Shown here piece by piece: positions 40,143 through 60,527 of a stretch of 64,000 nucleotides of DNA. The translations under genes were made by a program, and so were the position numbers. The stretch lies in IMG/VR virus record IMGVR_UViG_3300032050_000010, one strand, 5' to 3'. The stretch is from a virus. The notes beneath the pieces were generated by a model that ran no database searches, had not been told where the DNA came from, and saw only the letters and a program-made list of their open reading frames with translations. Positions within the stretch are counted from its first letter, which is position 1. Every line of letters starts with the position of its first letter.

Positions 40143-40494
40143 AAGAGCTGAGATCTTTATAAAGGTTATTGCGTGGCGGATTGTATCCACCACGCTTAGC
40201 TTCTTTGTCATCTATCATTTTACAGGTAGCGTGGCGACAACAACGCACGCACTTGCAATCGGAACAAGCATAGGAATAGTGTCCCAGTGGCTGTTTGAGA
40301 TGACGTGGGACACGTTTATACGGAGCAGATTGAGACATGCCCTTTCAGGACAACAAGGTAGAATTGATCGGTTACTACGGTGGAGACGAGGCACACGCGA
40401 TGTCAGCGTGGACGAGCACCAGCAGGGATCTGACGGAGGAGAAGCGTGGAAGGATCCCAACTCTCCTGAAAATGCTGGCCGAGAATGGACATGA
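40135..40494 (+). CDS. Small membrane protein (DUF2061-like)
   Basis: KVIAWRIVST, two hydrophobic segments, FEMTW; 3' part overlaps thyX. Confidence 0.5.
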   Translation: MSRRAEIFIKVIAWRIVSTTLSFFVIYHFTGSVATTTHALAIGTSIGIVSQWLFEMTWDTFIRSRLRHALSGQQGRIDRLLRWRRGTRDVSVDEHQQGSDGGEAWKDPNSPENAGREWT

Positions 40495-41005
40495 GACACC
40501 CTTCGAGAAGTCAAGCCTGCACTTCCTGGTCACTGTCGATGCTGCAACTCACATCCATCTCCTGAAGCACAGGATCGGTGTCTCGATCAACGGCGAGTCA
40601 GCGCGGTACAAGGAACTTCGAGATGACAAGTATTACCTGCCGAAGGATTGGTCGCTCGAAGAGCAGGCGAAGTACATCGCCTTCATGGAGGACGCACTCA
40701 TGCGTTACCACGATGCTCTTGAACGCTTCGTCGAGGATGGCATGAGCCGCAAGCGTGCCAAGGAAAGTGCCCGGTTCTACCTGCCCTACGGCAACCAGAT
40801 CACGATGGACATCATGTTCAACTGGCGCTCCTTCCACCACTTCCTCGAGCTGCGGATGAAGCCAGATGCCCAGCGTGAAGTCCGTGAGTTATCAGAGCAG
40901 ATGCTCCAGCTTGTCCGTGACATTCCTGGTAACCCGTTCAAGCACACGCTAGAAGCGTTTGGTTATGTTGTAAAACCTAAAGAAATATTCTACCATAGTG
41001 TGTGA
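40337..41005 (+). CDS. thyX: Flavin-dependent thymidylate synthase (canonical)
   Basis: GHETPFE, KHRIGVSINGESARY, ESARFYLP, NWRSFHHFLELR, AQREVR. Confidence 0.93.
   Translation: MPFQDNKVELIGYYGGDEAHAMSAWTSTSRDLTEEKRGRIPTLLKMLAENGHETPFEKSSLHFLVTVDAATHIHLLKHRIGVSINGESARYKELRDDKYYLPKDWSLEEQAKYIAFMEDALMRYHDALERFVEDGMSRKRAKESARFYLPYGNQITMDIMFNWRSFHHFLELRMKPDAQREVRELSEQMLQLVRDIPGNPFKHTLEAFGYVVKPKEIFYHSV
40968..40996 (+). promoter_or_regulatory. Sigma70-like promoter for repair/nucleotide operon
   Basis: TTGTAA-N17-TACCAT just upstream of the MBD4-like gene. Confidence 0.5.
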
Positions 41006-41433
41006 ACGCACCTAAGTCACCCTACAACCTGATCCAAGAGACAGTGCAGTACGATCCATGGCGCGTCCTGGTCGTCTGTATTTTCTGTAATCTAACAAAG
41101 CGTGTCGTCGCAGAGCCCTACATGTGGCAGTTCTTCGATCGATGGCCCACAGCATCGGCAGCATCCCATGCAGATCCTGCTGAGATCCGTGACATGATCG
41201 CTATTCTTGGTCTTGCAGATCGACGAAGCAAGACGCTGGTCAAGCTATCGCAGGCGTACGTGCAGTGGAACGGGGTTGATGTAAGATCTCTACCAGGCGT
41301 GGGTGAGTACGCTGCAGCAGCTTACGACATCTTCTGCCTGCACCGCTGGGCACAGATCCCAGAGCCCAAGGACGGCGCGTTGAAGAACTACTGGAAGTGG
41401 ATTAACGGAAAGGAGGAAAGTCAAATTGCCTGA
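41002..41433 (+). CDS. MBD4-like HhH mismatch (G:T/G:U) DNA glycosylase
   Basis: SPYNLIQETVQYDPWRVLVVCIFCNLT, LGLADRR, LPGVGEYA, YDIFC, PKDGALKNYWKW parallel the MBD4 catalytic domain. Confidence 0.85.
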   Translation: MNAPKSPYNLIQETVQYDPWRVLVVCIFCNLTKRVVAEPYMWQFFDRWPTASAASHADPAEIRDMIAILGLADRRSKTLVKLSQAYVQWNGVDVRSLPGVGEYAAAAYDIFCLHRWAQIPEPKDGALKNYWKWINGKEESQIA

Positions 41434-42235
41434 AGGACCTGAAGTCAAGATTGTATCTGAGTCGCTTGGCCGCGCGTTGCAAGGTCGGGCAATCGTCGGC
41501 ATCAACTATTTGGGCGGCCGCTACGCGAAGCACGGGCCTCCTGAGGGACACGCAGAAATTTCATCGGAGCTGCCCCAGAATGTGTCTGTCACATCTTGTA
41601 AGGGCAAGTTTATATACCTAACACTCCAAAATAATTGGGTAATCTGGAACACTCTGGGTATGACGGGTGGCTGGTCAAAGACGCAGCACAAACACAGCAG
41701 AGCGCAGTTTCTACTCGACGACGGGACATCTGTCTTCTTCAACGATCCACGCAACTTCGGCACGCTGAAGTACGTCCACGGGCTTGATGCACTTCAAGAG
41801 AAGTTGGATGAGCTTGGGCCCGACATGCTGGCAGAGGATGTTTCGGACGACTTGTTCATCAGACGGATGCGGAAGAAGAATAAGCGTGTGATCACAGAGA
41901 GCCTGATGGACCAGAAGGTGATCTGCGGTGTGGGCAACTACCTCAAATCTGAGAGCCTCTATTTCGCCGGGATCTCCCCTATGCGTCATGTCAACACCAT
42001 GACAGATGAAGAGCTGTCTCGGCTCAACCAGACGATTAAGGCAGTCATCCGTGCATCCTACCAGACAGGCGGCGCGACGATCTACACATTCCAGGGGTTC
42101 GACGGCGAGAAAGGACAATACAGTCGCCGCTTCGCTGTTTATAATCAAGACAAGGATCCTAAAGGGTGGGATGTGAAATCCTTCACCTCACCCGAGGGCC
42201 GCACAACATTCTGGGTTCCAGAGGAGCAAACATGA
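41426..42235 (+). CDS. Fpg/Nei-family DNA glycosylase/AP lyase, zincless finger
   Basis: N-terminal PEGPEV, KGK, LGMTG, DPRNFG, LMDQKVICGVGNYLKSESL, GRTTFWVP without Cys4. Confidence 0.92.
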   Translation: MPEGPEVKIVSESLGRALQGRAIVGINYLGGRYAKHGPPEGHAEISSELPQNVSVTSCKGKFIYLTLQNNWVIWNTLGMTGGWSKTQHKHSRAQFLLDDGTSVFFNDPRNFGTLKYVHGLDALQEKLDELGPDMLAEDVSDDLFIRRMRKKNKRVITESLMDQKVICGVGNYLKSESLYFAGISPMRHVNTMTDEELSRLNQTIKAVIRASYQTGGATIYTFQGFDGEKGQYSRRFAVYNQDKDPKGWDVKSFTSPEGRTTFWVPEEQT

Positions 42236-42459
42236 GTTACAGGCTATCAGATGAGACAATTGGGCAGATCGCTAAGCTTCTACAGGTCGCGATCATCACG
42301 GGCACTGACATCGTTGACAACCTTCGCACGATCCGCCTACGTGTAGGTGACGGTGAGCAGCTTGAGCCTACTGCAGATTACCTCGAGAACTTCGAGCGCA
42401 ATCTCAACAGGATGATCGAGTCACTCGCAGAGCAGACGAACACCAACCAGAGTGAGTGA
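42232..42459 (+). CDS. Hypothetical protein
   Basis: ATG 42232 with RBS GAGGAG, coupled to Nei stop. Confidence 0.6.
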   Translation: MSYRLSDETIGQIAKLLQVAIITGTDIVDNLRTIRLRVGDGEQLEPTADYLENFERNLNRMIESLAEQTNTNQSE

Positions 42460-42836
42460 CAATGGATAAGCTCGACCAGATGTTCCAGATGCGTAAGGAG
42501 TTCATGGCAGCGTTGTCTGCTCATGTCCCTAATGCATACCCACAGCAACCGATCGATCTCAGCAGCAAGCAGTCACAGCAGCACTTCAGAGATCTTGCTC
42601 TCCGCGGTGTTGAGGAGATCTTCGAGGCGCTCCAGCACTTGAAGAACACGAAGCCGCATCGTGTGACTGACATCACAGATCCAGTCGATGTTGAGGCGTT
42701 CAAGGAAGAGATGGTCGATGCTTTCAACTTCTTCTTCACGCTTCTAATCCTGATGGACGTCGATGCTGAAGATCTCTACGAGGTCTTCAAGAAGAAGGAT
42801 CAGATCATTCACGACCGCATCAAGAACAGGTACTAA
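42456..42836 (+). CDS. All-alpha dNTP pyrophosphatase (dimeric dUTPase/T4 gp56 dCTPase-like)
   Basis: EEIFEAL, KPHR, EEMVDAFNFF, C-terminal KKKDQIIHDRIKNRY. Confidence 0.78.
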   Translation: MTMDKLDQMFQMRKEFMAALSAHVPNAYPQQPIDLSSKQSQQHFRDLALRGVEEIFEALQHLKNTKPHRVTDITDPVDVEAFKEEMVDAFNFFFTLLILMDVDAEDLYEVFKKKDQIIHDRIKNRY

Positions 42837-43786
42837 TGGACATCAAGAAGATACTACAGCGTCAGAAGGAGTTCTCTAATCTCTTCTATGACTCGTCTAA
42901 CTTTGACGACGACAAGCGTGAGGAGATGACAAAGTCGTTCGCTCTGGCACTCCACGCTGAAGTGGCGGATCTCGTCAGCTCGATCAACTTCAAAGATCAC
43001 CACGCAAATCGACGGACACCGGATCGGGAGAAGATCCTGTACGAGTCGATTGACGTGATGAGGTACCTCCTGGCGATCATGAATGTGTGGGGGTATGAAG
43101 CTGATGAAGTTGAGACAGCTTTCAACGACAAGGACACCTTCCTGCACATGCGTCATCGAGTTGAAAACGCAAAGTGGGACGGTCGTCCTGTACTAATTGT
43201 CGATGTCGATGATGTCATCGCACACTTTAGGAAGGATTACTTTGAGTGGCTTCGAGACAGTCATGACATTGATATTCCTCTTGATTATCCTGAGTACTAT
43301 GCGTCCTCTCCCCTGAAGGAGCGCGGGATCAATCCAGAGGCGTCGTTCAAGGATTTCATCAGCGAGCGTCGTCTCCGTAAAATTGAGCCAATCGAAGGTG
43401 TCCGTGCAGTTCTAAAAGCAGCCCAAGAGCTAGGCTTCTGGGTGCAGTTGCTGACTGCTCGTCCTGACCAGAACTTGATCTGTCTCTACGACACCTACCA
43501 CTGGATCTCTGAGATGGGCGTACCATTTGATGGCCTCGCCTTCAGCGGCGAGAAGTACAGGTGGATCGTGCAGAGCCAGTTCTACGGACACGTTGCAGCA
43601 TGCATCGATGACTCACCAAAGCACGCTGCAGAGTACGCAAATCACGGTTTGCTTGTACTCTCACCTGCATTGTCTTATAATGCATCATTGGCTGGCACTT
43701 CTGGTGTCACTCGATACGAAGATCCTGATCAACTACTTCTACAACTAATTCAAATCAAAGAGGAAATCAATGCCACAAGACACTAA
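42836..43786 (+). CDS. Fusion: all-alpha NTP pyrophosphatase domain + HAD 5'(3')-deoxynucleotidase
   Basis: N-terminal HAEVADL...YESIDVMRY; C-terminal VDVDDVI, LTARP, CIDDSPKH. Confidence 0.75.
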   Translation: MDIKKILQRQKEFSNLFYDSSNFDDDKREEMTKSFALALHAEVADLVSSINFKDHHANRRTPDREKILYESIDVMRYLLAIMNVWGYEADEVETAFNDKDTFLHMRHRVENAKWDGRPVLIVDVDDVIAHFRKDYFEWLRDSHDIDIPLDYPEYYASSPLKERGINPEASFKDFISERRLRKIEPIEGVRAVLKAAQELGFWVQLLTARPDQNLICLYDTYHWISEMGVPFDGLAFSGEKYRWIVQSQFYGHVAACIDDSPKHAAEYANHGLLVLSPALSYNASLAGTSGVTRYEDPDQLLLQLIQIKEEINATRH

Positions 43787-44720
43787 TCTCAAGCCCATCA
43801 CTCTTCCTATGGCGATCCGTTTCGGCGAGGAGCCAACTACCGAGTTCGTCAACAGCCTTGATGCACTTAAGCTCGAGCTTGTTGATGCACCAGATCCCAA
43901 GTCGATCCGCCAGGCTGTCTACTGCTTCGTTAAGTCGACCTGGGCAGACCAGCACGTTCCTTACAAGGACGCAACTGAGGCTGAGCTTAGCAAGACACTT
44001 GAGGACGTCTTCGCAGGTCGTGCGCTCCCAGCAGCGATGGAGCTGATCGGTCTCACCTTCCTCGTGGGTGGCATCGACACGCAGACTGTAACGCATCTCA
44101 TCCGTCACCGTGCAGGTTCCTTCGCAGCGCAGTGCACCGGTGACCGTTGGCTTTCACACGAGCGCAGCCTTGTTCCTGGTTCCATCCAGAACAGCCCGGA
44201 GTTCTACGCTCGCTGGCAGGCACACGTCCAGGAGGCAAAGCAGCTCTACACGGACATGGTCGACTCCAAGCAGATCAGTCTGATGGATGCTCGTCACGTC
44301 CTTCCTAAGTGCCTCGAGACGTTCTACTACATGCGTATGAACATCCGCGACGCATTTGGTTTCATCAAGCAACGCCAGGACAAGCAGATCCAGCCTGAGG
44401 AGGACAACATGCTTGCAGCGCTCATGGCACGCGAGATCCTTCGCGTCTTCCCTGAGGCACACGTGGCAATCAACCTCCGTGAGCCTGCCTGGCACTACAT
44501 CAAGACGTTCCGGAATGGCACTGGTACGAACCTCTACTGGCCCGATGAGGACAGCGAGAAGCACCTCACCTACCACCCAGACGACACGATCTATCAGGCA
44601 ACACGTGACGACATGAACGGCACAGGTGGTGGTGTCCCTCACTTCCGGAAGCTCTGGAACGAGACACTTGCTGAGATTGACACGATCGTCACCAACTACA
44701 AGAACACACGGGGCATTTAA
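43770..44720 (+). CDS. Divergent ThyX-fold flavoenzyme (second paralogue)
   Basis: THLIRHRAGSFAAQCTGDR, DARHVLP, FIKQR...QPE; motif Ser replaced by Cys122. Confidence 0.8.
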   Translation: MPQDTNLKPITLPMAIRFGEEPTTEFVNSLDALKLELVDAPDPKSIRQAVYCFVKSTWADQHVPYKDATEAELSKTLEDVFAGRALPAAMELIGLTFLVGGIDTQTVTHLIRHRAGSFAAQCTGDRWLSHERSLVPGSIQNSPEFYARWQAHVQEAKQLYTDMVDSKQISLMDARHVLPKCLETFYYMRMNIRDAFGFIKQRQDKQIQPEEDNMLAALMAREILRVFPEAHVAINLREPAWHYIKTFRNGTGTNLYWPDEDSEKHLTYHPDDTIYQATRDDMNGTGGGVPHFRKLWNETLAEIDTIVTNYKNTRGI

Positions 44721-44763
44721 TACTTAGTTGGGCACTTTATATTAAAGAGAAGAGCCCAACTGA

Positions 44764-45849
44764 ATGTCTGCAGTTAGAGTAGTAGATGAACACCTCCTGT
44801 CTCCGGTACTTGTGTATTCGGGGTCAGGAGGTGTTTTTGAGAACGAGCTTCAGCTTGATACCCAGGGTGGTATCTTAAGAGAGCAGATCGGCAGCCTGCT
44901 CGTCGTCAAGAACGACTTCGGCGTGGTTGCTGCCTTGACAGGATCGGTCTTTTCCGGTCCTGTCTCTTTTTTGTCTGGTGCAACAGGGTCGATACAAGCG
45001 CTACCCGATGGATCGCCCTTCATCAGGGGTACAAGCGGGATCAATGTCACGTCTGGGTCAGACGGTAGCATCACGATCTCAACGTCCGGATCCTTTCTAA
45101 CACTTGACACGCTGACATCAGCGTCATCTGTTACGTTCAGGGGTGACGTGTACATTGAGGGAACTCTTTACGGCGGGTCACCGCTTGATGTCGCAAGTGA
45201 TATAAATGCGCTAGGAGCTGTGACATCACTAGGTGGATTGACTGGGTCGCTAACACAGTTAGCAGACGGTTCACCCTACCTCGTCGCAGGCGCAGGCATC
45301 TCGATCGTCACTGGGTCGCAGGGTCAAGTTACAATCTCTGCAACGGGCACAGGAGGAAGTGACAGATCACAGAGCACTTCCCTAATCACAGAGCTTGTCC
45401 TCAATGAAGCTCCTGTCGGTGCAATCGACGGAACAAATGCAACTTTCACGCTAGCTCACGCACCAACTTCTGCGTCATCTGTCATGCTGTGGCTGAACGG
45501 CCAGTTGCTCATGCAGGGTGCAGGTAATGACTTCACTGTCACATCGCAGACGCTGACAATGAGCTTCCCGCCTCAATTGGGTGACATCCTGCTGACGATG
45601 TACACAAAGTCATCACAGGCGAAGCTCTTCGCGATGAACGAAGCTGCTACAAAGGTGGTCACTGCGGGCGTCATCGGGTTTGAGCTGGCTAACGCTCCGT
45701 CACCGTCAACCTCCCTAATGCTCTTCTTGAACGGTCAATTGCTCACGCAGGGCAGTGACTACACACTGTCGACAAGAAGTGTGACAGTCACAAACGGCTT
45801 CATTCAAGACAGCGACGTGGTTCTTGCGACCTACTCTTATTTGAGCTGA
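44764..45849 (+). CDS. Virion structural/decoration protein with internal repeats
   Basis: Two GS(I/L)..L.DGSP..G..GI...GS.G..TIS repeats and two NE...LA.AP...L.LNGQLL.QG.D(F/Y)T modules; ATACTTA upstream. Confidence 0.6.
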   Translation: MSAVRVVDEHLLSPVLVYSGSGGVFENELQLDTQGGILREQIGSLLVVKNDFGVVAALTGSVFSGPVSFLSGATGSIQALPDGSPFIRGTSGINVTSGSDGSITISTSGSFLTLDTLTSASSVTFRGDVYIEGTLYGGSPLDVASDINALGAVTSLGGLTGSLTQLADGSPYLVAGAGISIVTGSQGQVTISATGTGGSDRSQSTSLITELVLNEAPVGAIDGTNATFTLAHAPTSASSVMLWLNGQLLMQGAGNDFTVTSQTLTMSFPPQLGDILLTMYTKSSQAKLFAMNEAATKVVTAGVIGFELANAPSPSTSLMLFLNGQLLTQGSDYTLSTRSVTVTNGFIQDSDVVLATYSYLS

Positions 45850-45906
45850 ATACTTGACAAGAGCTAAGCTTCGTGATATTTAGCTTTGTAGTTTACGAGG
45901 CAGGAA

Positions 45907-46125
45907 GTGACGTACACAACATCAGAGCTGGCACTAGCTGCGTATCTAAAGATGCGTGGCGTGAGGTTGATCAGCGCAGGCAAGGCACCCACAGGGAAAT
46001 TTGAGTTCGTGTTCGACGATAAGACAGGGGTATGCTCAGGGCACTTCGTTGACTTCCTCAACGGTGAGTTCAGCACATACGATTCGAACCTCAAGTCGTT
46101 GAAGAAAATGATCTACTCAAAGTGA
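45907..46125 (+). CDS. Small protein (DUF5659-like)
   Basis: YTTSELALAAYL...FEFVF; RBS AGGA. Confidence 0.55.
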   Translation: MTYTTSELALAAYLKMRGVRLISAGKAPTGKFEFVFDDKTGVCSGHFVDFLNGEFSTYDSNLKSLKKMIYSK

Positions 46126-46297
46126 TTTTTTATTGAATGTTTTAGAATGTCAAGCATATATAGAGACAGGCGCGTAACGCAGTTTTTGGTGATCAGAATA
46201 ATCACCAGTTCAGTTTAAACAGTTAGCTGTTAGAGTTTGATCCCGTAAGTGGTGTTCACGTGCGGGATTTTTTCTTGAAGATAAAGGATAAAACATC

Positions 46298-47959
46298 ATG
46301 GCAATCAAGACATACAGCGGCGCCGCAGGCGTCGAAGCCGGTCGTCCATCAACAAAGATCCGCGCTGAGCAGGTCCATTCAGAAGACAGCTTTACCTCAC
46401 TCGCCGTCGACCTCGAGGCACTCCGTGGCCAGGTCAAGGACATCATCGGCGCAGCTGACTACAAGGAAGAGATCACAGGCGAGTACGCCAAGGTCCAGAT
46501 CGTGGACCTCGCCGCTCACCTCGATGCATCAGGCGCATCCTCACTCAGCGTGAAGCAGGCCGCAAACGTTGTCGGTGCTTTCTCAGTCAACACTGACAAG
46601 TTCAGCGTTGCTGCAGCAACAGGTAACACTCTTGTCGCAGGCACTCTCGGCGTCACCGGCAAGGCTGACTTCGCAGGCATCGTCGACGTCGCAACCACAC
46701 TCTCAGCATCTGAGATCAAGATCGACGGTGACGTGGCACAGCGTCTTTACCTCGTCGGCGCTAGCGGCCAGATCGAGGACGAAGCCAAGCTCGTCTTCGA
46801 CGGATCAGAGCTCGCAGTAACTGGTGACTTTGCAGCAGTCAGCGGCTCCTTCAGCGGCGACGTCGCAATGGGCGACCTCGGTGCAGTGAACGGTGCCTTC
46901 TCTGGCAACCTCACTGTCACGGGCGACCTCACCATCAACGGCACAACGACCACAATCAACTCGACAGTCGTGTCGATCGATGACAAGTCATTCGTGCTCG
47001 CACAGGGCGCAGCCGGTGTTGCTCTCGATGGCGCAGGTATCTACGTCTCTAGCGACTCTGCACCCGATGCAGCAATTGCATGGAGCAACACCAACAGCAA
47101 GTGGACAGCATCCACTAAGCTTGCTTCACCCGCAATGCAGGTCACAGGCCTCAGCTCAGCACCCCTTGCCGTTGACGGCTCTGGCAATCTCGCCGAGATG
47201 GATTTCAGCTCCTGGCTCCTGGGCACAGCTAACCAGGTGTCTGTTACTCCGAGCGGAACAGACAACCACGGTGTGACACTCAGCCTCCCCCAGAGCATCC
47301 ACACCGATGCAGACGTCGAGTTCGATAGCCTCAAGCTCGGCGACAACGTTGCTGACGCAGGCAAGGCTCTCAAGATCGGCGCCGCAGGAGAGGTGATCGC
47401 TGCAGCTTGGAACGAGTTCGTTGCAATCGAGTCCAACGTCGGTCTCGAGCTCGTCCAGAACGGCTTCAAGGCAGAGATCGGTCTTGCTCAGGACATCCGC
47501 TCTTCCGCAACGATTCGGTTCGCTCGCGTTGAGCTCGACGGCGCCGACAACTACGTCGACTCCAGCGCAGACGGCCTCGTCCTCCGCGCCACCGCCGCAG
47601 GCGACTCCATCGTCTTCGAGTACGACGCAGGCAAGACCATCTCGCTCGGCACAGCCGCTCTCTCCGGCTTCACAGCCACAGACATCATGGGCGCTCTCAA
47701 CGAGCTCAAGGCAGCAGCCTCAGCAGCTTCTAAGAAGGCCGTCTACACTGTCGCAGGCTCAGCCGTTGCATCAGGCACAGACATCAAGGCATCACTCAGC
47801 ACCGACTTCCTCGCCGAGCTCACCGGACAGAACTCACTCGTGTTCGTCAACGGTATGCTCATGCTGGCTGGCGGCGCTGACTACACGCTCGCCGGTGGCG
47901 CGCTCTCGTTTACCTTCGCCCTCCAGGTTGGTGACGTGGTCGTCGTCCAGAAGGCCTGA
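46298..47959 (+). CDS. Fibre-like virion protein
   Basis: Ala/Gly/Ser-rich; GNLTVTGDLTINGTTTTINSTVVSIDD fibre motif; C-terminal VFVNGMLM...DYT; MCP-like codon bias. Confidence 0.7.
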   Translation: MAIKTYSGAAGVEAGRPSTKIRAEQVHSEDSFTSLAVDLEALRGQVKDIIGAADYKEEITGEYAKVQIVDLAAHLDASGASSLSVKQAANVVGAFSVNTDKFSVAAATGNTLVAGTLGVTGKADFAGIVDVATTLSASEIKIDGDVAQRLYLVGASGQIEDEAKLVFDGSELAVTGDFAAVSGSFSGDVAMGDLGAVNGAFSGNLTVTGDLTINGTTTTINSTVVSIDDKSFVLAQGAAGVALDGAGIYVSSDSAPDAAIAWSNTNSKWTASTKLASPAMQVTGLSSAPLAVDGSGNLAEMDFSSWLLGTANQVSVTPSGTDNHGVTLSLPQSIHTDADVEFDSLKLGDNVADAGKALKIGAAGEVIAAAWNEFVAIESNVGLELVQNGFKAEIGLAQDIRSSATIRFARVELDGADNYVDSSADGLVLRATAAGDSIVFEYDAGKTISLGTAALSGFTATDIMGALNELKAAASAASKKAVYTVAGSAVASGTDIKASLSTDFLAELTGQNSLVFVNGMLMLAGGADYTLAGGALSFTFALQVGDVVVVQKA

Positions 47960-47997
47960 TAGAGCAAACGCTTCGGCAGATCTAATCTGCTAAAGCT

Positions 47998-48027
47998 GGG
48001 GCGGGATCTCTTGATCCCGCCCCTTTT
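47998..48027 (+). terminator. Rho-independent terminator
   Basis: GGGGCGGGATC-TCTT-GATCCCGCCCC-TTTT. Confidence 0.9.
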
Positions 48028-48052
48028 GCATTATTACTGCATGGCACCGCTA

Positions 48053-48081: not shown

Positions 48082-48087
48082 TCAACT

Positions 48088-50917: not shown

Positions 50918-50942
50918 ACACCGCACCGGGCGCATGTAGTAT
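50914..50942 (+). promoter_or_regulatory. Sigma70-like promoter
   Basis: TTGAAC-N17-TAGTAT before NDT gene. Confidence 0.5.
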
Positions 50943-50959
50943 TGCTTAGAGGCAATAAC

Positions 50960-51403
50960 ATGAACAACGTCTATATCGCAAGTGGTTGGTTTTCTCCAGA
51001 GTGGCTCCAGGAAGTTGAGGACATTAAGACTGTCCTCGAGGATCTCAAACTCGATTACTTCTCTCCCAAGGATTATGCGATCGCTGAGGCAACTGCAAGC
51101 AACGACACGCAGAAGCAGATCTTTGATGGCAACGTCAAACACCTTGACATCTGTGATTGGATGATCTGCAACACCCGCAACAAGGACATGGGTTCAATCT
51201 GGGAGGCAGGCTATTTCTACGCTCGCAACAAGCCCATCGTCTACTTCTGCGCTGGCCTTCCACCCGGTGCCAAGTTCAATCTCATGCTGTCAGCAAGCGG
51301 CGTCGCTGTCTGCACTTCTCTCGATGATCTCCGTGAGTACCTGACACACTGCAAGCGTGAAGGTAAGCTGATCACTCGCAACTACAGCGGTTTGATCGAG
51401 TAA
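50960..51403 (+). CDS. Nucleoside 2-deoxyribosyltransferase / nucleotide N-glycosidase family
   Basis: VYIASGWFS, YFSP, DMGSIWEAGY (catalytic Glu), KPIV, FNLML. Confidence 0.85.
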   Translation: MNNVYIASGWFSPEWLQEVEDIKTVLEDLKLDYFSPKDYAIAEATASNDTQKQIFDGNVKHLDICDWMICNTRNKDMGSIWEAGYFYARNKPIVYFCAGLPPGAKFNLMLSASGVAVCTSLDDLREYLTHCKREGKLITRNYSGLIE

Positions 51404-52232: not shown

Positions 52233-53213
52233 ATGAAGATACTCATTACTGGTCACCGAGGTTTCATTGCATCTAACCTTCCACCTGCATTCGCTGATCT
52301 CGATCACGAAGTTGTCGATCCCAGCCAGCTCAGGCTGACACACAAGCTGCCGACAGGTGAGCACTGCGTCTATCGTAACAGTGAGGATGACTGGGCGCGC
52401 GAGATCAAGCGGCTCGGCGTCGATGTAGTTGTCCACAATGCAGCAGCAGTGGGCACCGATGTCGTCGCGCTCAATCCTAGCGATGCGACGCTGTCCAACG
52501 TGACAGGAACCTACAACATCTGCCGCGCTGCTGAGAAAGCACGCGCAGCCGTCCTCTACCTCGGAACGACAGTCATCTATAACACAGATCTGTATCAGGG
52601 CTCCTGGATCGCTGAGCGCTCCTCGCACGGCCCACAGACGCTCTACGGATCTCTGAAGCTGGCAGGTGAGTACATCGTCCGTGCACACAGCACGAAGTGG
52701 TCGATCGTCCGGCCCCTCTTCTGCTACGGCGGCGTGGGTGACAACAACTCACTGATCGCGAAGGGGTTCTTCGGCGCTGCACACGGCAAGGAGAAGATCG
52801 ACATGTTCCTCGATCCCAAGAAGATCAAGGATTACATGCGCGTCGAGGATTTCTGCGATGCGGTGGCAACTGTGGTCGATAAGGAGCTCTGGAACGATGA
52901 CTGGAACGTCGCTGCGGAGACGCCTGAGAACACAGGCAGGATCGTCGAGATGATGAGTGAGATCTCGTGCAAGGATCTAAAGGGTGTGGTAAAATGGCAC
53001 CCAGGAACCGACTACTTGGGTAACCATCGACTAAGCTCACAGAAGTTCAGGGATGCTTCTGGTTGGACACCAAAGTTCGACCTATATGGTGGCTTGGAAA
53101 AGTCGTGGAATGACATCCAGCGTAATCTGGGTTCCACGGATTATAATCCTCTGCGATATCTGGAAGATGCCAAGAAGCGCGGCATCGACCTCACACAATT
53201 CTTCAACCGGTGA
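52233..53213 (+). CDS. NAD-dependent NDP-sugar epimerase/dehydratase (divergent extended SDR)
   Basis: ITGHRGFIA, HNAA, GTTVIY, YGSLK, RPLFCYG. Confidence 0.85.
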   Translation: MKILITGHRGFIASNLPPAFADLDHEVVDPSQLRLTHKLPTGEHCVYRNSEDDWAREIKRLGVDVVVHNAAAVGTDVVALNPSDATLSNVTGTYNICRAAEKARAAVLYLGTTVIYNTDLYQGSWIAERSSHGPQTLYGSLKLAGEYIVRAHSTKWSIVRPLFCYGGVGDNNSLIAKGFFGAAHGKEKIDMFLDPKKIKDYMRVEDFCDAVATVVDKELWNDDWNVAAETPENTGRIVEMMSEISCKDLKGVVKWHPGTDYLGNHRLSSQKFRDASGWTPKFDLYGGLEKSWNDIQRNLGSTDYNPLRYLEDAKKRGIDLTQFFNR

Positions 53214-53219: not shown

Positions 53220-56200
53220 ATGAGTATCATTCGACCTCCGGATCGGTTTGTGGGCCTTCATGCCCACTCCGGTTTCTCGACCATGGACGGCCTCGGCTAT
53301 CCCGCCCAGCACATCGACTTCGTGCTGAAGAACGGCATGGATGCCTGGGCGTTGACTGACCACGGCAACGGCAGTGGCCTTGCCCACGCACAGTCACATG
53401 CCAAGAAGATGAAGAAGGCGGGCCAGAAGTACCGTCAGCTGAACGGGGTCGAGTTCTACTTCGTTCCATCACTGAAGAACTGGGCAGAGCAGTATCAAGA
53501 TCACAAGGACGCAGTCGCTGCTGCTCGCTCTGAGAAGAAGTCGAAGGAGGCGACTGACATCGACGCCGACGATGAGGCAGGTGCGGGTCACATCATCGAG
53601 AATGAGGATGAGACAAAGGACGCGTCATCACTCGAAGTGAAGGATGACGAGTGGAAGCGTCGCTACCACCTCGTTGTGATTGCTAAGGATAAGCGTGGCC
53701 TGTCCAACCTCTTCACGCTGGTCAAGCGGTCATTCAAGGAGGGGTACTATCGTTTCCCTCGGATTGACTTCGACATGCTCAAGCAGCACGGTGAAGGGCT
53801 TGTCGTCAGCACAGCCTGCATCGGTGGCATCATGGCGAACCGCGTCCTCCGCGGACAGGCGATGCACAAGTCAGATGCTGAGATCCAGCACGAGCTCAAG
53901 AACCTGACGGATCGGTTTGTGGACGCCGTCGGCCTCGAGAACTTCAACCTCGAGATCCAGTTCAACAAGCTGCAGGCACAGCACGACGTCAATCGGCACC
54001 TGATCGATCTGCACAAGAGCACAGGCGTCCCGCTGGTGGCGACCTGCGATAGTCACTATCCCACTCCTGACAAGTGGAAGACGCGCGAGCTCTATAAGAA
54101 GCTGGCGTGGATGAACGCAAAGGAGGAACCCAAGCCCCTCCCAGCATTCGATGAGCTGAAGTGCGAGCTCTACCCAAAGAACGCCGAGCAGATGTGGGAG
54201 GAGTTCAATCGACATACTGATGCCTACACATTCTATCAAGGCAGCGAGGAGCTGGTTCGAGATGCGATCGAGCGGACGCACGACATCGCATGGCAGCAGT
54301 GTGAGGACGTCTGGGTCGATACAGGCGCCAAGCTCCCAGTTTTCGCCACGCCTGAGAAGACAGAGTTCCAGCAGCTGGTGGATCTCGTCAAGGAGCGGAT
54401 GGGCGAGATGGGGCTGCATGAAAATCCCGAGTACATGGCGCGTGTGAAGGAGGAACTCTCAGACATCAAGCACCTGGGACACGCATCTTACTTCCTCACA
54501 ATGTACAAGATCTTCCACCGTGCTAAAGAGCGGACGCTCCTCGGGCCAGGTCGTGGATCGGCACCCGGTTCTCTCGTCAACTACATCCTTGGGATTACAC
54601 AGATTGATCCACTTCCGTTCGGCCTCCTCTGGAATCGCTTCCTTGGTCGGCATCGTGTGTCTTGGCCCGATATCGACTCCGATGCTGGTGATCGTGACGT
54701 TCTTATTGACGCGGCACGTGAGCTCTTCGGTGACGATGCTGTCATTCCCGTCTCCAACTTCAACACCCTGAAGCTGAAGTCGCTGGTGAAGGACGTCGCG
54801 AAGTTCTTCAACGTTCCGTTCGATGAGGTCAATGCGGTGACAGGACCGCTTCAGGACGAGGTCATGCCTCACGCTAAGGATGATGACCAGGAGAAGTCGG
54901 TCTTCGTCCTCAAGCACGATGACTGCATGAAGTACTCACCTGCTTACAATGCATTCATGACGAAGTACCCCGAGGTGGAGGAGCACGTTAATGCGCTCTT
55001 CATGGAGAACCGTTCGATCGGTCGTCATGCAGGCGGCGTCCTCGTTGCAGAACCCAAGGCGTTGGCTGAAGGCATGCCCATCATCGGTGTTCGCGGTGAA
55101 TTGCAGACGCCGTGGACAGAAGGTATGAACTTCCGCAACCTGGAGGACAACGGCTTCCTCAAGTTCGACTTCCTCGGCCTAACACTGCTCAAGGACGTAG
55201 AGAACTGCATCAAGCGGATCCTGATCAAACAGGGTGTCAAGAACCCGACATTCAGCCAGATCAAGGATTTCTTCGATGAGCATCTCAACTGCCGAACGGT
55301 CAAGCAGGATGATCAGCAGGTTTGGAAGCATGTCTATCACGAGGGTCGGTTCGTCGGTGTCTTCCAGTTCACAGCTGACGGTGCACGTAAGTTTTGCCTC
55401 GATGCGAAGCCCACAAACATCGGTGAGCTGGCAGCACTGACAGCAATCTACCGACCAGGCCCACTGAAGGCAAACGTCCACAAGCTGTATGTCCAGGCAA
55501 AGCGGGATGCCTCGAAGATCAAGTACGACCATCCAGTCATCCAGGAAGTGCTAGGGCCCACGTTCGGTTACGTTGTCTTCCAGGAACAGTTCATGATGCT
55601 GGCGCAGAAGCTGGCAGGGTTCTCTCCTGGTGAGGCTGACCAGCTCCGCAAGACGCTGGTCAAGAAGTCGCTGGACACGCTGGGCAAGAAGTCATCTGAG
55701 AAGGAGGCAGCGCGGAAGCAGTTCATCGACGGTGCTCTGGCACTGCACGGTGTGCCTGAGAAGGTGACTGGCCCGCTCTGGGACACGATCGAGGCTTTCT
55801 CGGTGTACGGCTTCAACAAGTCGCACTCCGTGTCCTACGCGATCGATTCCTACTATGCAGGATGGCTCCACACGCACTACGAGAAGGAGTGGTTGGCAAC
55901 AATCCTGCAGTCTGAGACAGGCAATCCCAAGGGCCTGGCAAAGGCTATTGCCGAGATCAAGGCAATCGGTTATAAGTTCTCGCAGGTCGACATCAACTAC
56001 TCAGGTACCGAGTGGACGTACTCTGATGAGATCCAGGCGTTCGTTCCGCCGCTGACATCTGTCAAGGGCCTAGGCGACTCAGCAGTGAGTGAGATCATGG
56101 AGAACAGGCCCTACCGTGCGCTGGATGACCTCCTGTTCGATGCAGAAGGTGAGTGGCGCCACTCCAAGCTGAACAAGAGCTGCCTTGAGTCGCTGATCCT

Positions 56201-56783
56201 CACTGAGAGCCTGGGTTCGCTGCAGGAGTTCAAGGACGAGCGTCTCAACAATCACAATCAGCTCCACAAGATGATCATCGAGAACTATGACACGCTCCGC
56301 AAGGGTCGCACAGGAATGACCAAGACGGCCACCAAGAAGTGGGTAAAGGAGCACGGTAAAGAGCCCGTGATCATCGACCAGCTGATCGAGGCAACAGCGG
56401 ATGTCCAAGATTGGAACCGCTACGAGAAGATCAAGAACTTCGTGGAGATCTTGACCACGGCGTCAGAAGAACTACTATTCCCACCCACCGTGATGGCAAA
56501 GATTGATCGTTCTAACGTCCCGTCTGCAATGCAGATCTCACCAGGATCGAAAGCAGTTGTCTGGTTCTGTGCGCAGGACTGGGTCAAGAAGCAGACAAAG
56601 AACGGCAAGACATTCTACACAGCATTCGCTGTTGACAATAACAGTGACACTGCAAGGATCCGTGTGTGGGGCACATTTAAAGAAGAGCCCGAGCGATACA
56701 CTATGTGGCTAGCTGAGGTAGAATATGATGCTAACTGGGGTATGTCAACCTCAGCAATGAAAATGCGAAAGATCGAGGTGTAA
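53220..56783 (+). CDS. dnaE: DNA polymerase III alpha (family C)
   Basis: PHP motifs HAHSGFS.DG, LTDHG, GVEFY, CDSHY; GRGSAPGS; PDIDSD; KFDFLGL; YGFNKSHS. Confidence 0.96.
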   Translation: MSIIRPPDRFVGLHAHSGFSTMDGLGYPAQHIDFVLKNGMDAWALTDHGNGSGLAHAQSHAKKMKKAGQKYRQLNGVEFYFVPSLKNWAEQYQDHKDAVAAARSEKKSKEATDIDADDEAGAGHIIENEDETKDASSLEVKDDEWKRRYHLVVIAKDKRGLSNLFTLVKRSFKEGYYRFPRIDFDMLKQHGEGLVVSTACIGGIMANRVLRGQAMHKSDAEIQHELKNLTDRFVDAVGLENFNLEIQFNKLQAQHDVNRHLIDLHKSTGVPLVATCDSHYPTPDKWKTRELYKKLAWMNAKEEPKPLPAFDELKCELYPKNAEQMWEEFNRHTDAYTFYQGSEELVRDAIERTHDIAWQQCEDVWVDTGAKLPVFATPEKTEFQQLVDLVKERMGEMGLHENPEYMARVKEELSDIKHLGHASYFLTMYKIFHRAKERTLLGPGRGSAPGSLVNYILGITQIDPLPFGLLWNRFLGRHRVSWPDIDSDAGDRDVLIDAARELFGDDAVIPVSNFNTLKLKSLVKDVAKFFNVPFDEVNAVTGPLQDEVMPHAKDDDQEKSVFVLKHDDCMKYSPAYNAFMTKYPEVEEHVNALFMENRSIGRHAGGVLVAEPKALAEGMPIIGVRGELQTPWTEGMNFRNLEDNGFLKFDFLGLTLLKDVENCIKRILIKQGVKNPTFSQIKDFFDEHLNCRTVKQDDQQVWKHVYHEGRFVGVFQFTADGARKFCLDAKPTNIGELAALTAIYRPGPLKANVHKLYVQAKRDASKIKYDHPVIQEVLGPTFGYVVFQEQFMMLAQKLAGFSPGEADQLRKTLVKKSLDTLGKKSSEKEAARKQFIDGALALHGVPEKVTGPLWDTIEAFSVYGFNKSHSVSYAIDSYYAGWLHTHYEKEWLATILQSETGNPKGLAKAIAEIKAIGYKFSQVDINYSGTEWTYSDEIQAFVPPLTSVKGLGDSAVSEIMENRPYRALDDLLFDAEGEWRHSKLNKSCLESLILTESLGSLQEFKDERLNNHNQLHKMIIENYDTLRKGRTGMTKTATKKWVKEHGKEPVIIDQLIEATADVQDWNRYEKIKNFVEILTTASEELLFPPTVMAKIDRSNVPSAMQISPGSKAVVWFCAQDWVKKQTKNGKTFYTAFAVDNNSDTARIRVWGTFKEEPERYTMWLAEVEYDANWGMSTSAMKMRKIEV

Positions 56784-56784: not shown

Positions 56785-57693
56785 TTGAAGTTCAATCTAA
56801 AGACAGTTGTGCTAGAAGGTGTGGATTGCAGCGGCAAGACAACACTGTTTAGGAGCTTGCATCGTGCAACAGGCTTCAAGTGGAATATCCACGATCGAAG
56901 TGCTCTCTCGATGCTCTGCTATGCAGTCATGTACGGAAGAGATGTTGACCACTGGCGGCAGCTTCTCTTGGAAGAGATCAGCGATCTGAACAATGTGATC
57001 GTTGTGCTCATGCCCCCACTGGCCACCATCAAGGATCGCCTTGCTGAAAGAGGCGACGAGTTTCAAGATCAAGTGACGATTGAGAAGTTGTACACCATCT
57101 TTGAGGATGAGGTTTCACGTCTCAGCGCATACCCTAACGTCTTAGTTTGCGCGCAATCAAAAGCTTCTAGCGATGACATCGCACGGTGGCTGCTAAACTA
57201 CGAGCGGCAGACATACAGTCGACTTGCAGAGATGACGCACGATCATGCGAGGATCAAGCTGTCTGGTGAAGCGCCTTTCCTAAAGATGACGTGGGAAGAC
57301 ACTGACTTCAAGACGCTCAGCACAAAGGCACTCTTCTACGAACCTGAGCTTGAGTACTACGAAGCAACACGCAAGAAGCTTATTGAAAAGATCCAAGCAG
57401 AGCTGGCTGGACAGAATGAGTACGAGATGAAGCAGGATCTCAAGTCGCGACGGTTTGTCATGACACAGGATAGTTGCATCTCCTATGCACACTTCATGTA
57501 TCGTGGCGGCGTGCTTCACGCCAACATCGTGTGCAGATCTTCTGAGGTGTCGCGTATCTTCCCAAATGACATCCACTTCATCGGTCACATGGGTCAGACA
57601 GCCCGACGTGAGCTCGGCCTCACCGTTGAGACACCCGTGAGGTTTAATCTCACTCTCGACTCAGCACATGTAATCTTTCAACCTACGCATTAA
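56785..57693 (+). CDS. Fusion: dNMP kinase + minimal thymidylate-synthase-fold domain (dCMP type)
   Basis: LEGVDCSGKTT and HDRS kinase motifs; SRR...DSC231...RS(251)SEVSRIFPND262...SAHV. Confidence 0.8.
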   Translation: MKFNLKTVVLEGVDCSGKTTLFRSLHRATGFKWNIHDRSALSMLCYAVMYGRDVDHWRQLLLEEISDLNNVIVVLMPPLATIKDRLAERGDEFQDQVTIEKLYTIFEDEVSRLSAYPNVLVCAQSKASSDDIARWLLNYERQTYSRLAEMTHDHARIKLSGEAPFLKMTWEDTDFKTLSTKALFYEPELEYYEATRKKLIEKIQAELAGQNEYEMKQDLKSRRFVMTQDSCISYAHFMYRGGVLHANIVCRSSEVSRIFPNDIHFIGHMGQTARRELGLTVETPVRFNLTLDSAHVIFQPTH

Positions 57694-57710: not shown

Positions 57711-58703
57711 ATGAAGAGAGCATTAGTAACGGGCGGCGCCGGCTTCATTGGGTCAAATCTGACGCACGCGCTTGTCGATGATGGCTGGACAGTTGACGTA
57801 GTAGACGACATGTCGAACGGCCACCTCAACCTTCTTGATAATTTGAGCTATCGAGTTTTTCTGCCGGGCATGGCAGAAATCTATGAAGCACAGAAGCAGA
57901 GAACTTCGAAAGAAGTTTACGTGCATGAGTGTGACTTTGCACACCCAGTCATTCTAGACAGAATTGCTCGGAAGCAATACGACGTCGTCTTCCACCAGGC
58001 AGCTGTTCCGCAAGTTTCCTACTCTGTCGAGCAGCCTACGAAGACGACAGACGTCAATCTTCTGAGAAGCATTGAGCTTCTCCATTCTTGCGTCGGCAAC
58101 GTCGACAAGGTGGTTGTTGCATCATCATCAGCTGTCTATGGTAATACGGAGACACTGCCGACAACTGAAGAGACGCCACGTAACCCAAGATCTCCATACG
58201 GCCTCCAGAAGAGTGCTCTTGAGGATTTCTGTCGACTATTTGGTGAGCTCTACGATCTAGACACCGTCTGTCTGCGTTATTTCAACGTTTTTGGAGCAGG
58301 CCAGTACGGCGACTCACCTTATTCCACAGCAGTGTCTGCATGGTGTGATGCAATCAAACACGGACGAACACTTAGATCAGATGGTGACGGATCGCAGTCC
58401 CGTGACATGTGTCATGTTGACAATGTTGTAAGTGCCAATATTCTTGCTGCCAAGACGCCGAACCGCCTCATGGGCAAAGGGTACAACATCTGCTGCGGTG
58501 AGCGGACGACAAACCTTGAGATCCTCCAGCACCTCACAGGAGCATTTCCAACAGTTGAAGTTCGTCACGCTCCCTGGCGTCCAGGTGATGTTAAGCACAC
58601 ACTGGGTGACTGGTCAGCAGCAAATCGTGACTTCGGATACCAACCAATAGTTAAGTTCTGGGATGGGCTTGAGAAGACGCTCGCCTGGTGGGAGCTCAAG
58701 TAA
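57711..58703 (+). CDS. NAD-dependent UDP-sugar 4-epimerase-like SDR
   Basis: TGGAGFIGS, HQAA, SSSAVYG, YGLQK, LRYFNVFG, RPGDVKHT. Confidence 0.92.
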   Translation: MKRALVTGGAGFIGSNLTHALVDDGWTVDVVDDMSNGHLNLLDNLSYRVFLPGMAEIYEAQKQRTSKEVYVHECDFAHPVILDRIARKQYDVVFHQAAVPQVSYSVEQPTKTTDVNLLRSIELLHSCVGNVDKVVVASSSAVYGNTETLPTTEETPRNPRSPYGLQKSALEDFCRLFGELYDLDTVCLRYFNVFGAGQYGDSPYSTAVSAWCDAIKHGRTLRSDGDGSQSRDMCHVDNVVSANILAAKTPNRLMGKGYNICCGERTTNLEILQHLTGAFPTVEVRHAPWRPGDVKHTLGDWSAANRDFGYQPIVKFWDGLEKTLAWWELK

Positions 58704-59257
58704 TGCGCATCCCACCAACATTCACTGTCTTCTGTGGGCCTATGATGTCGTCTAAGACGACACGACTGATCGGCGCGGTCGACCGCTTTCGATATCAGAA
58801 CCAGCGTGTCCTTGCATTTAAACCAAAGATGGATAGAAGGTATGCAAAAGAAGAGATCACTACACACAACGGTGGAAAACTTGAAGCTCTCATTGTTAGC
58901 ACTGGTGATGAGATACTACGCCACGTTGACGTATATGAACCAGACGTTGTAGCAGTTGACGAAGCTTTCATGATTGACGGCTCTGCAGACGCACTCATTC
59001 AGATCTACCGTAGAGGCGTGTCTGTCGTTGTGTCGTCGATCGAGATGTCTGCCAGCTGCAACTCTTTCCCAGAGATTGAGAAGATCCTTCCCTGGGCGAC
59101 AAAGGTTGAGAAGTGCACTGCCGTCTGTGTTGTATGCGGCGAGGATGCACCGTACACACAGAAGAAGATCAATGACATCGCAGAGATCACAGTTGGGGGT
59201 TCTGAGCTCTATGAGCCTCGATGCTGGTCACATCATGCGACCGCGCGCGAAGCGTGA
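58703..59257 (+). CDS. tdk: Thymidine kinase (TK1 type), divergent motifs
   Basis: GPMMSSKTT, FKPKMDRRY, VDEAF, CVVCG...YEPRCWSH. Confidence 0.85.
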   Translation: MRIPPTFTVFCGPMMSSKTTRLIGAVDRFRYQNQRVLAFKPKMDRRYAKEEITTHNGGKLEALIVSTGDEILRHVDVYEPDVVAVDEAFMIDGSADALIQIYRRGVSVVVSSIEMSASCNSFPEIEKILPWATKVEKCTAVCVVCGEDAPYTQKKINDIAEITVGGSELYEPRCWSHHATAREA

Positions 59258-60116: not shown

Positions 60117-60527
60117 ATGCGTCCAGGCTGGGATGAAGTGTGGATGAACATCGCACGTGAAGTATCACGCAGGTCAGCAGACGACAAGTACAAAGTTGGA
60201 ACTGTGATAGTCACTGGAGACAACACACAAGTGCTGTCGCTAGGATACAACGGCGACCACGCAGGTGGCCCAAATTGCAGAGAGTCGAGTGACCCTGGCG
60301 AGTCAGGTTTTATCCATGCCGAGATGAACGCGCTGATCAAGCTTGACTACAATAACCTAAAGCGACGTGTTATGTACGTTACGTTGTCGCCCTGTAAGAT
60401 GTGCGCTAAAGCAATCATCAATGCAGGTATCAACGAGCTCGTGTACGGCGAAGATTATAGAGATCTCAGCGGTATTGACATTCTCACAGGCGCTGGGATA
60501 AAAGTTAGAAAAATAACTCAAACTTAG
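60117..60527 (+). CDS. dCMP deaminase family protein
   Basis: LGYNG, HAEMNAL, SPCKMC. Confidence 0.9.
   Translation: MRPGWDEVWMNIAREVSRRSADDKYKVGTVIVTGDNTQVLSLGYNGDHAGGPNCRESSDPGESGFIHAEMNALIKLDYNNLKRRVMYVTLSPCKMCAKAIINAGINELVYGEDYRDLSGIDILTGAGIKVRKITQT

Follow-up and report, generated by a model that had tools for sequence, protein, structure and literature searches.

A Cys-bearing ThyX-like clade of phages and its association with a kinase and a cytosine-type mini thymidylate synthase fold

Two ThyX-fold genes in an uncultured myovirus

The window analyzed here is a stretch of 64,000 nucleotides (bases 35652-99651) of the 163.9-kb IMG/VR virus record IMGVR_UViG_3300032050_000010, and it contains two genes related to the flavin-dependent thymidylate synthase (FDTS) ThyX. 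The first one is a canonical copy, and the second one, the open reading frame (ORF) 43770-44720, encodes a divergent protein called ThyX-like below, which is the subject of this study (Table 1). Every large ORF of the window lies on the + strand, including genes for a tail sheath, a T4-type baseplate, gp32-like and RecA/UvsX-like proteins, DnaB and class I/II ribonucleotide reductase, and the source is a large uncultured myovirus. Megablast with positions 40000-46000 returned no match in cultured phages.

Residue numbering was set by aligning the canonical copy with Thermotoga maritima ThyX (H53, R78-H79-R80, E86, S88, R90, Y91, R147 and R174). This copy keeps H53, E86, S88, R90 and Y91, and its translation contains the motifs GHETPFE and KHR..ESARY, in agreement with the initial annotation. 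From its sequence, it is presumed to be the dTMP synthase of the phage.

The ThyX-like protein scores 72.7 bits against the Pfam Thy1 family (PF02511) for a cut-off of 24.8 bits, over profile positions 15-191. Its AlphaFold (AF2) model, with a predicted local distance difference test (pLDDT) score of 92.7, was matched by Foldseek with a probability of 1.0 and TM scores of 0.7-0.77 on the targets, and the best VIA-align match was M. tuberculosis ThyX (3gwc; Z 16.5, root-mean-square deviation (rmsd) 2.9 Å, 212 residues aligned). With both programs, all the top matches are ThyX or PolB structures (Z 15-16.5, rmsd 2.5-3.0 Å, around 200 residues), the next unrelated entry having a Z of 4.7. The product of ORF 43770-44720 is a genuine member of the ThyX fold and of the Pfam family, and its matches in the ESM Atlas are proteins of its own kind only, named 'FAD-dependent thymidylate synthase family'. 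With the NCBI thyX equivalog model TIGR02170, it reaches 51.7 bits, below the cut-off of 87.9 bits which the canonical copy passes with 104.5 bits. Since it fails this model together with four ThyX motif features, it is a fold and family member which does not pass tests of functional equivalence.

Comparison with known structures was based on a clade profile (A1) built from 22 diverse clade members and searched against PDB sequences, and conservation was counted over 134 clade sequences. A PDB sequence search with the single ThyX-like sequence gave no match, ThyX being reached only by the clade profile, whose top match is the S88C mutant of T. maritima ThyX (3g4c). As initially annotated, the translation reads GRALPAAME at residues 83-91 and RHRAGSFAAQCTGDR at residues 112-126. 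Cys122 sits 10 residues past the first Arg of the RHR motif, with the same spacing as from Arg78 to Ser88 in T. maritima ThyX, and the earlier proposal that it occupies the Ser88 position was borne out by the profile, in which Cys122 aligns to position 88 of 3g4c. The ThyX motif RHR-x7/8-S has the form RHR-x7-C here. In the profile alignment to T. maritima ThyX, R112/H113/R114 correspond to R78/H79/R80, R175 to R147 and R202 to R174. The loop following the Cys residue reads C-T-G-D-R-(W/F/D) in the clade; the Arg is shifted by two positions, R126 being located two residues later than Arg90, as had been noticed at first, and the conserved Tyr (Tyr91) is absent. Similarly, the reported lack of the folate-stacking His was borne out in the clade, which has no conserved His at or beside the His53 position; this segment reads (R/K)84-A-L86-P87.

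Among the 134 sequences, no variation occurs at T57, W58, P87, H109, R112, H113, R114, A120, C122, D125 and Y160, and L86 is kept in 133. The arginine residues of the dUMP/flavin site (R78, R80, R147 and R174) are kept as R112, R114, R175 and R202, each being invariant or present in 133 of the 134 sequences. Because C122 and D125 are invariant along with H109, R112, H113 and R114, the Cys motif was judged not to result from chance. A C-terminal extension had also been proposed. Most of the extra length of the protein stems from an insertion around residues 241-290, followed by the terminal helix, which can still be superposed on the last helix in ThyX.

The beginning of the ThyX-like gene overlaps by 17 nt the end of a gene encoding a MazG domain fused to an NT5C/HAD domain, which agrees with the coupling to a pyrophosphatase/HAD gene initially described. 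A GAGGAA ribosome-binding site is present 7 nt upstream, and scanning for promoters and terminators around the gene gave nothing beyond the shuffled expectation.

Table 1. Position of the two ThyX-fold genes, of the sites discussed in the text and of the associated nucleotide-metabolism and repair genes in the window
Feature	Position	Strand	Evidence or remark
Canonical ThyX	40337..41005	+	Pfam Thy1 126 bits; TIGR02170 104.5 bits
HhH-GPD glycosylase, 143 aa	41002-41433		Directly 5' of the Fpg/Nei gene
Fpg/Nei-family DNA glycosylase	41426..42235	+	PF01149, PF06831; TIGR00577 162 bits, below cut-off
MazG-like all-alpha NTP pyrophosphohydrolase	42456..42836	+	phrog_12184 nucleotide pyrophosphohydrolase, 6.4e-14
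MazG/dUTPase_2 fused to an NT5C (HAD) 5'-deoxynucleotidase-like domain	42836..43786	+	PF08761, PF06941
ThyX-like flavoenzyme	43770..44720	+	316 aa; Pfam Thy1, AF2 model, VIA, invariant residues
ThyX-like site, L86-P87 (His53 region)	44025-44030		
ThyX-like site, RHR 112-114	44103-44111		
ThyX-like site, Cys122	44133-44135		
ThyX-like site, Asp125	44142-44144		
Nucleoside 2-deoxyribosyltransferase / dNMP N-glycosidase family (NDT)	50942..51403	+	PF05014 61 bits
NDP-sugar epimerase/dehydratase (SDR)	52233..53213	+	PF01370
DnaE-type DNA polymerase III alpha	53220..56783	+	PHP, DNA_pol3_alpha, finger and HHH_6 domains
P-loop dNMP-kinase domain fused to a mini ThyA-fold domain (kinase-miniTS)	56785..57693	+	Catalytic Cys231; Asp262 at the E. 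coli N177 position (cytosine type)
Second SDR	57711-58703	+	PF01370
Thymidine kinase	58688..59257	+	PF00265 123.8 bits
dCMP deaminase	60117..60527	+	PF00383 83.7 bits

Extent of the clade and its constant partner

A search of 5.8 billion proteins retrieved 1,239 matches to the ThyX-like protein, the best 120 of which are all 314-334 residues long, bar one fragment of 242 residues. An exhaustive search of 50%-identity representatives gave 479 matches at E<=0.001 and 124 at 1e-10, and the clade spans dozens of 50%-identity clusters. The signature RHR-x2-[ST]-[FWY]-[AS]-A-Q-C-T-G-D-R is present in nearly all close members. In distant representatives, the His residue of RHR is replaced by Y, N, T, Q or S, while Q-C-[ST]-G-D persists. 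In a quick maximum-likelihood tree, 99 ThyX-like rows were set apart from canonical ThyX and from the Pbunavirus type with a Shimodaira-Hasegawa-like approximate likelihood ratio test (SH-aLRT) value of 98, the Cys-bearing forms being spread throughout the ThyX-like side. The Pbunavirus (PB1-like) ThyX, considered as a possible Cys-type enzyme from a phage with ordinary DNA, was ruled out since it reads RTR..ETSR, has no Cys and groups with canonical ThyX.

Cellular genomes were surveyed by a motif scan and tblastn using one genome per species (185,579 prokaryote species). Two loci were found, both in contigs of metagenome-assembled genomes with primase, DnaE and RecA-like neighbors, a phage-type context, and the clade is essentially virus-only. 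Among 50,697 cultured-phage records, Geobacillus phage GR1 carries the sole full-length member, with 46% identity. As far as the incomplete coverage of the literature extends, neither a description of this clade among reports on Cys-type ThyX in phages nor a DNA analysis of phage GR1 was found.

The ThyX-like gene has a constant partner, which encodes a P-loop kinase domain fused to a mini ThyA-fold domain (miniTS). The model of this fusion protein has a pLDDT of 93.4, and its best Foldseek matches are the dCMP hydroxylase AfhB of phage HY126 (9iqu and 9iqc), followed by thymidylate synthases (TS) and the CMP hydroxymethylase MilA. Sixteen homologs keep the P-loop, C231, R251-S252 (equivalent to R166-S167 of E. 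coli ThyA) and Asp262. The fusion was found in 29 of 30 records containing the ThyX-like gene, the exception having this gene at the end of the contig. Conversely, the ThyX-like gene was found in 14 of 16 records containing the fusion, the two exceptions being fragments 14% and 22% complete. The link between both genes is close to absolute. In several records, among them G005, G029, G012, G004, G021 and G027, the match to the fusion contains one or two in-frame TAA/TAG stops, which could represent assembly errors, interrupted genes or recoding.

The partnership extends to distant lineages in which the two domains are encoded separately. In two Firmicutes-phage contigs, the gene order is a kinase-NDT fusion, an HD YfbR-like 5'-deoxynucleotidase, the ThyX-like protein, a stand-alone miniTS and DnaE, one of these miniTS scoring 23.5 bits against PF00303. 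In phage GR1, a 151-residue 'hypothetical' gene starting at the stop codon of the ThyX-like gene is a miniTS (32 bits to a miniTS hidden Markov model, E 4.5e-11). In locus L178, the genes for the ThyX-like protein (with RNR instead of RHR), the kinase and miniTS overlap head to tail. In loci L180 and L181, the set consists of MazG, a radical SAM protein, NDT, a YfbR-like HD protein, the ThyX-like protein, a full-length ThyA homolog with N177 changed to Asp, and DnaE.

Several of these modules contain additional genes. In GR1 (L001, 4158-10424), NDT, a thioredoxin, an HD protein, a glycosyltransferase, a P-loop kinase, RNase HI and a nitroreductase-type flavin reductase accompany the ThyX-like protein and miniTS, a gene cluster which points to a glycosylated modified base in this cultured thermophilic phage. 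A uracil-DNA glycosylase, two radical SAM proteins and a ferredoxin-like/DHO_dh-like protein are encoded in L178 (9899-15477), and a radical SAM/SPASM protein in L180 (5566-6558). The extra genes of L178 and L180 suggest further tailoring of the modified base.

To what extent the two ThyX forms coexist was examined in whole viral records, where Thy1 searches distinguish canonical matches (115-177 bits, ORFs of 210-275 residues) from ThyX-like ones (55-85 bits, ORFs of 318-354 residues). Both forms are present in 12 of the 30 records chosen by the ThyX-like gene, including four of the five among them which reach 200 kb, and in 11 of the 16 records chosen by the kinase-miniTS fusion. The latter include the two genomes rated 100% complete, one of 284 kb and one of 239.5 kb bounded by terminal repeats. 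Taking together the records which are complete or at least 200 kb long, six of seven have the two forms. In many cases, tens of kilobases lie between the canonical copy and the ThyX-like gene; they are within 10 kb of each other in 12 of the 83 related loci surveyed. ThyA (PF00303) was not detected in the record containing the window, in GR1 or in five records with the ThyX-like form only. As complete genomes keep both forms, the ThyX-like copy is probably not redundant with canonical ThyX.

A proposed role at C5 of dCMP and competing explanations

The known enzymes acting at C5 of cytosine, such as dCMP hydroxymethylase and the C5-methyltransferases, use a Cys nucleophile at C6 together with an acid. 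Judging from the sequences, a Cys next to C6 followed by an Asp three residues later is the gain that would be expected for a ThyX adapted to a cytosine ring. We therefore consider, with about as much confidence as doubt, that the ThyX-like protein may act on dCMP, or on the substituent at its C5, in a flavin-dependent reaction before replication, together with miniTS and the kinase, and may not carry out dTMP synthesis. The framework binding the flavin and the nucleotide is kept (RHR and the arginine residues matching R147 and R174), while the residues with which canonical ThyX binds folate and transfers the one-carbon unit (His53, Ser88 and Tyr91) are lost. Invariant Cys122 would be placed next to C6 of the pyrimidine, with the new invariant Asp125 three residues on. 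The ThyX-like protein, the P-loop kinase and the cytosine-type miniTS form one conserved unit inside a T4-like cytosine-replacement module, in which the ThyX-like enzyme would work with or directly after miniTS at C5 of dCMP before replication and the canonical ThyX would make dTMP, as T4 keeps td beside gp42. The fold, the motifs and their conservation, the distribution, the co-occurrence and the synteny are observed here; the cytosine substrate, the part played by Cys122 and Asp125 in catalysis and the place of this step in the pathway are what we infer.

Canonical ThyX activates uracil by N3 deprotonation aided by R174, which polarizes uracil O4 (PMC8316439). Such a route would be closed to cytosine because its N3 carries no proton. 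His53 of T. maritima ThyX stacks on folate and reduced flavin (PMC11940539), S88 and Y91 are used to displace the hydroxyl group of the flavin carbinolamine, and mutating S88, R90 or Y91 slows carbon transfer, by more than 100-fold for Y91A (PMC8316439). In the ThyA family, the N177D rule and the requirement for Cys146 have been described, and Cys activation together with flavin and O2 allows dCMP to be hydroxylated without folate (PMC13326640). A C5 step on dCMP is favored because of the Cys/Asp pair, this folate-free flavin precedent and the coupling to miniTS and the kinase.

Canonical ThyX/FDTS (EC 2.1.1.148; PF02511), represented by T. maritima TM0449 and M. tuberculosis ThyX, shares with the clade the fold, the RHR motif and the arginine residues matching R147 and R174. 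The clade differs from it by the replacement of Ser88 by Cys, by the absence of His53 and Tyr91, by the new invariant residues Asp125, His109 and Thr57-Trp58, and by an insertion of around 50 residues before the last helix. Until now, the ThyX family has been regarded as having one function, PolB, the polyoxin UMP/dUMP C5-methylase of Streptomyces cacaoi (4p5a, 4p5b), being the one described neofunctionalized paralog that we found; it is encoded beside a housekeeping thyX (PMC5954106). PolB is structurally as close to the ThyX-like protein as ThyX itself (Z 15.6), and no specific motif is common to both. While PolB keeps the folate-dependent methylase chemistry and alters the sugar specificity only, the phage clade alters the catalytic loop, with its Cys and Asp residues, and the folate-side residues.

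Cytosine replacement in T-even phages relies on the dCTPase gp56, the dCMP hydroxymethylase gp42, the dNMP kinase gp1, a dCMP deaminase, td and tk. As with td and gp42 of T4, the phage studied here possesses two TS-family paralogs, one for dTMP and one presumably for a modified dCMP, together with a pyrophosphatase, a kinase, a deaminase and a thymidine kinase. Unlike in T4, the paralogs are of the ThyX and not the ThyA type, and the set adds a cytosine-type mini ThyA-fold enzyme, an NDT-like protein, a 5'-deoxynucleotidase and DnaE. The 5-hydroxy-dCMP synthases RB69 gp48, DLP3 gp80 and HY126 AfhB, the last being the best structural match of kinase-miniTS, combine Cys-activated dCMP with flavin and O2 and hence perform folate-free C5 chemistry (PMC13326640). 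These enzymes have a ThyA fold and no ThyX-like partner, whereas ORF 43770-44720 encodes a ThyX fold; compared to them, miniTS is smaller and the D169N change is not always present. XP12-type phages containing 5-methylcytosine were considered as a case of a ThyX-type dCMP methylase and ruled out, the XP12 enzyme being a ThyA homolog (bioRxiv 10.1101/2024.12.05.627091). Weak Thy1 signals are known from two genomes with modified pyrimidines, SP-15 (a 413-residue ORF at ~115.8 kb) and YerA41 (a 387-residue ORF) (PMC12686479). As closest relatives, the corresponding proteins SP-15 gp130 and YerA41 gp081 were excluded, with 26 and 15 bits to Thy1, no RHR..C-[ST]-G-D motif and no tblastn match to the ThyX-like protein.

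The initial annotation proposed a neofunctionalized flavoenzyme and not a second dTMP synthase. The core of this idea fits every comparative result, i.e., the virus-only distribution, the failure of the equivalog model, the coexistence with canonical ThyX and the conserved module. Overall, it is partly supported, GR1 being the caveat. The kinase and miniTS, which were not part of the initial annotation, point to dCMP chemistry. The presence of both forms in complete genomes speaks against simple redundancy, to which GR1 is an exception: its complete 79-kb genome has neither canonical ThyX nor ThyA, and no full-size TS-family gene other than the ThyX-like one. The situation in GR1 bears on a refuting condition set in the initial annotation, according to which RHRx7C homologs would be the lone thymidylate synthase elsewhere.

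Other observations weigh, like GR1, against a C5 step on dCMP. A 236-kb record at 70% completeness has the ThyX-like form only, and in this record as in GR1 the protein could be a dTMP synthase; a phage can also live on host dTMP. A few ThyX-like subclades have lost the Cys residue. The contigs of the non-Cys relatives P0139 and P0147 measure 1.7 and 4.5 kb, a length which does not allow their partners to be assessed, and the one readable locus of this kind has no miniTS within its 4.5 kb. The retained arginine matching R174 suits a uracil-like ring better than cytosine. Finally, ThyX does not depend on Ser88 as a nucleophile and the S88C mutant has been crystallized (3g4c), so that the Ser-to-Cys change alone need not alter function. 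Owing to the retained R174 equivalent, the subclades devoid of Cys and the absence of another TS in GR1, three alternative explanations keep some weight.

The alternative which survives best, although we consider it unlikely, is that the ThyX-like protein is the flavin-reducing or flavin-delivering part of a two-component monooxygenase. It would reduce flavin with NAD(P)H, like the NADPH oxidase activity of canonical ThyX, and miniTS would hydroxylate Cys-activated dCMP with O2 as AfhB or RB69 gp48 do, the nucleotide only gating the reduction. The strict co-occurrence and adjacency of both genes speak for it, adjacency being the usual layout of reductase/oxygenase gene pairs, as does the fact that the residues lost are exactly those for folate and one-carbon handling. 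A gene related to Fe/Mn superoxide dismutase (SOD) is also located nearby. Moreover, the best structural matches of miniTS are flavin-dependent dCMP hydroxylases with a loosely bound flavin (PMC13326640), and dUMP is a catalytic activator in ThyX proteins (PMC3498832). A pure reductase role would nevertheless not explain why Cys and Asp are invariant in the pyrimidine pocket, and the AfhB-type enzymes of E. coli phages run without a ThyX-like partner. In GR1, the nitroreductase-type flavin reductase encoded just upstream would make the ThyX-like protein redundant as a reductase, and the D169N signature of the proven 5-hydroxy-dCMP synthases (PMC13326640) is not fixed in miniTS, which has D, N or E.

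It is improbable, in our opinion, that the protein is a flavin-dependent C5 enzyme acting on dUMP (or dTMP) and producing 5-hydroxymethyl-, 5-hydroxy- or other 5-substituted dUMP for thymidine hypermodification, with MazG-NT5C serving as a dTTPase/dTMPase. The dUMP-site arginine residues matching R78, R80, R147 and R174 are kept, acid trapping of the ThyX reaction is known to yield 5-hydroxymethyl-dUMP (PMC3498832), and phages with hypermodified T carry ThyX-derived proteins, as shown by the weak Thy1 matches of SP-15 and YerA41 (PMC12686479). These two proteins, however, belong to a separate family without the RHR..C motif, the coexistence of canonical ThyX and thymidine kinase in complete genomes argues that T is still made, and the constant partner is a TS-fold enzyme of the cytosine type.

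A divergent but working dTMP synthase, i.e., a second or backup FDTS with, for instance, a different reductant, carbon donor or oxygen tolerance, appears very doubtful, for although the protein passes the Thy1 threshold with a ThyX fold, the T. maritima S88C mutant has a solved structure and the gene is the only full-size TS-family gene in complete GR1 and in some large fragments, the equivalog cut-off is failed, His53, Ser88 and Tyr91 are missing, and the gene is absent from cellular genomes, kept beside canonical ThyX in complete genomes and strictly tied to a kinase and to a TS-fold enzyme of the cytosine type.

Returning to the dCMP step, a more specific version of it can be put forward, tentatively and as a possibility on the doubtful side. 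The ThyX-like protein and miniTS may be halves of a split enzyme of a kind not described so far, the former holding the flavin and loading oxygen or a one-carbon unit, and the latter, or the Cys122/Asp125 pair, holding the covalently activated dCMP. With the fused kinase, it would feed a new C5-modified cytosine, probably glycosylated later, to a dedicated DnaE in widespread marine and Firmicutes phages.

If a dCMP step is true, ThyX would possess a second and much larger functional branch of more than 1,200 sequences, confined to viruses and with a catalytic loop organized around a Cys-Asp pair. The partnership with a kinase and a cytosine-type TS fold suggests that abundant marine myoviruses and Firmicutes phages make modified cytosine by a route not yet described. 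This would bear on phage evasion of restriction and CRISPR, on the sequencing behavior of metagenomic phage DNA and on the search for nucleotide-modifying flavoenzymes, and the cultured carrier GR1 makes the question directly testable. New in this work are the two-way co-occurrence counts, the position of miniTS directly beside the ThyX-like gene in cultured GR1 as well as in remote lineages, the finding of two complete genomes with both forms, and the persistence of C-[ST]-G-D beyond that of RHR.

The surrounding nucleotide module

The neighborhood of the ThyX-like gene was surveyed by calling and clustering the ORFs of the 83 related loci. A pair of MazG-like genes, one of them fused to NT5C/HAD, is present in 80 loci, and the HD YfbR-like 5'-deoxynucleotidase takes the place of the MazG-NT5C fusion in the Firmicutes-phage versions. 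An NDT-family gene was found in 77 loci, mostly directly 3' of the ThyX-like gene, and an SDR sugar epimerase in 63. DnaE is encoded within 10 kb in 62 loci, and also in GR1, L087, L088 and L180.

Between the NDT and ThyX-like genes of the window, there is a 6-kb structural-looking block (44764-50917), which contains Gly/Ser/Thr-rich proteins of 361 and 553 residues and small ORFs. Since the same clusters are located 4-9 kb upstream of the ThyX-like gene in most relatives, this arrangement is a local rearrangement in the lineage of the window. Further downstream, the order is SDR, DnaE, the kinase fusion, the second SDR, thymidine kinase, DHH, dCMP deaminase and the SOD-like gene. In addition to the full DnaE-type polymerase, the phage encodes a family-A polymerase-like protein of 391 residues (30140-31315; 34.4 bits for a Pfam cut-off of 34.3).

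Upstream of the MazG-like pair, an Fpg/Nei glycosylase cluster is conserved in 54 of the 83 loci. Together, the Fpg/Nei and HhH-GPD proteins may constitute a repair system tuned to a genome with modified pyrimidines. Between Fpg/Nei and MazG, a small ORF (42166-42459; 97 residues by the longest start, around 80 in relatives) is present in 69 loci and has no match in Pfam, PHROG or NCBIfam. At the other end of the nucleotide module, the SOD-like gene (60840-61541) encodes a 233-residue protein whose C-terminal domain matches Fe/Mn superoxide dismutase (56 bits) and which could be related to reactive oxygen produced by flavoenzymes.

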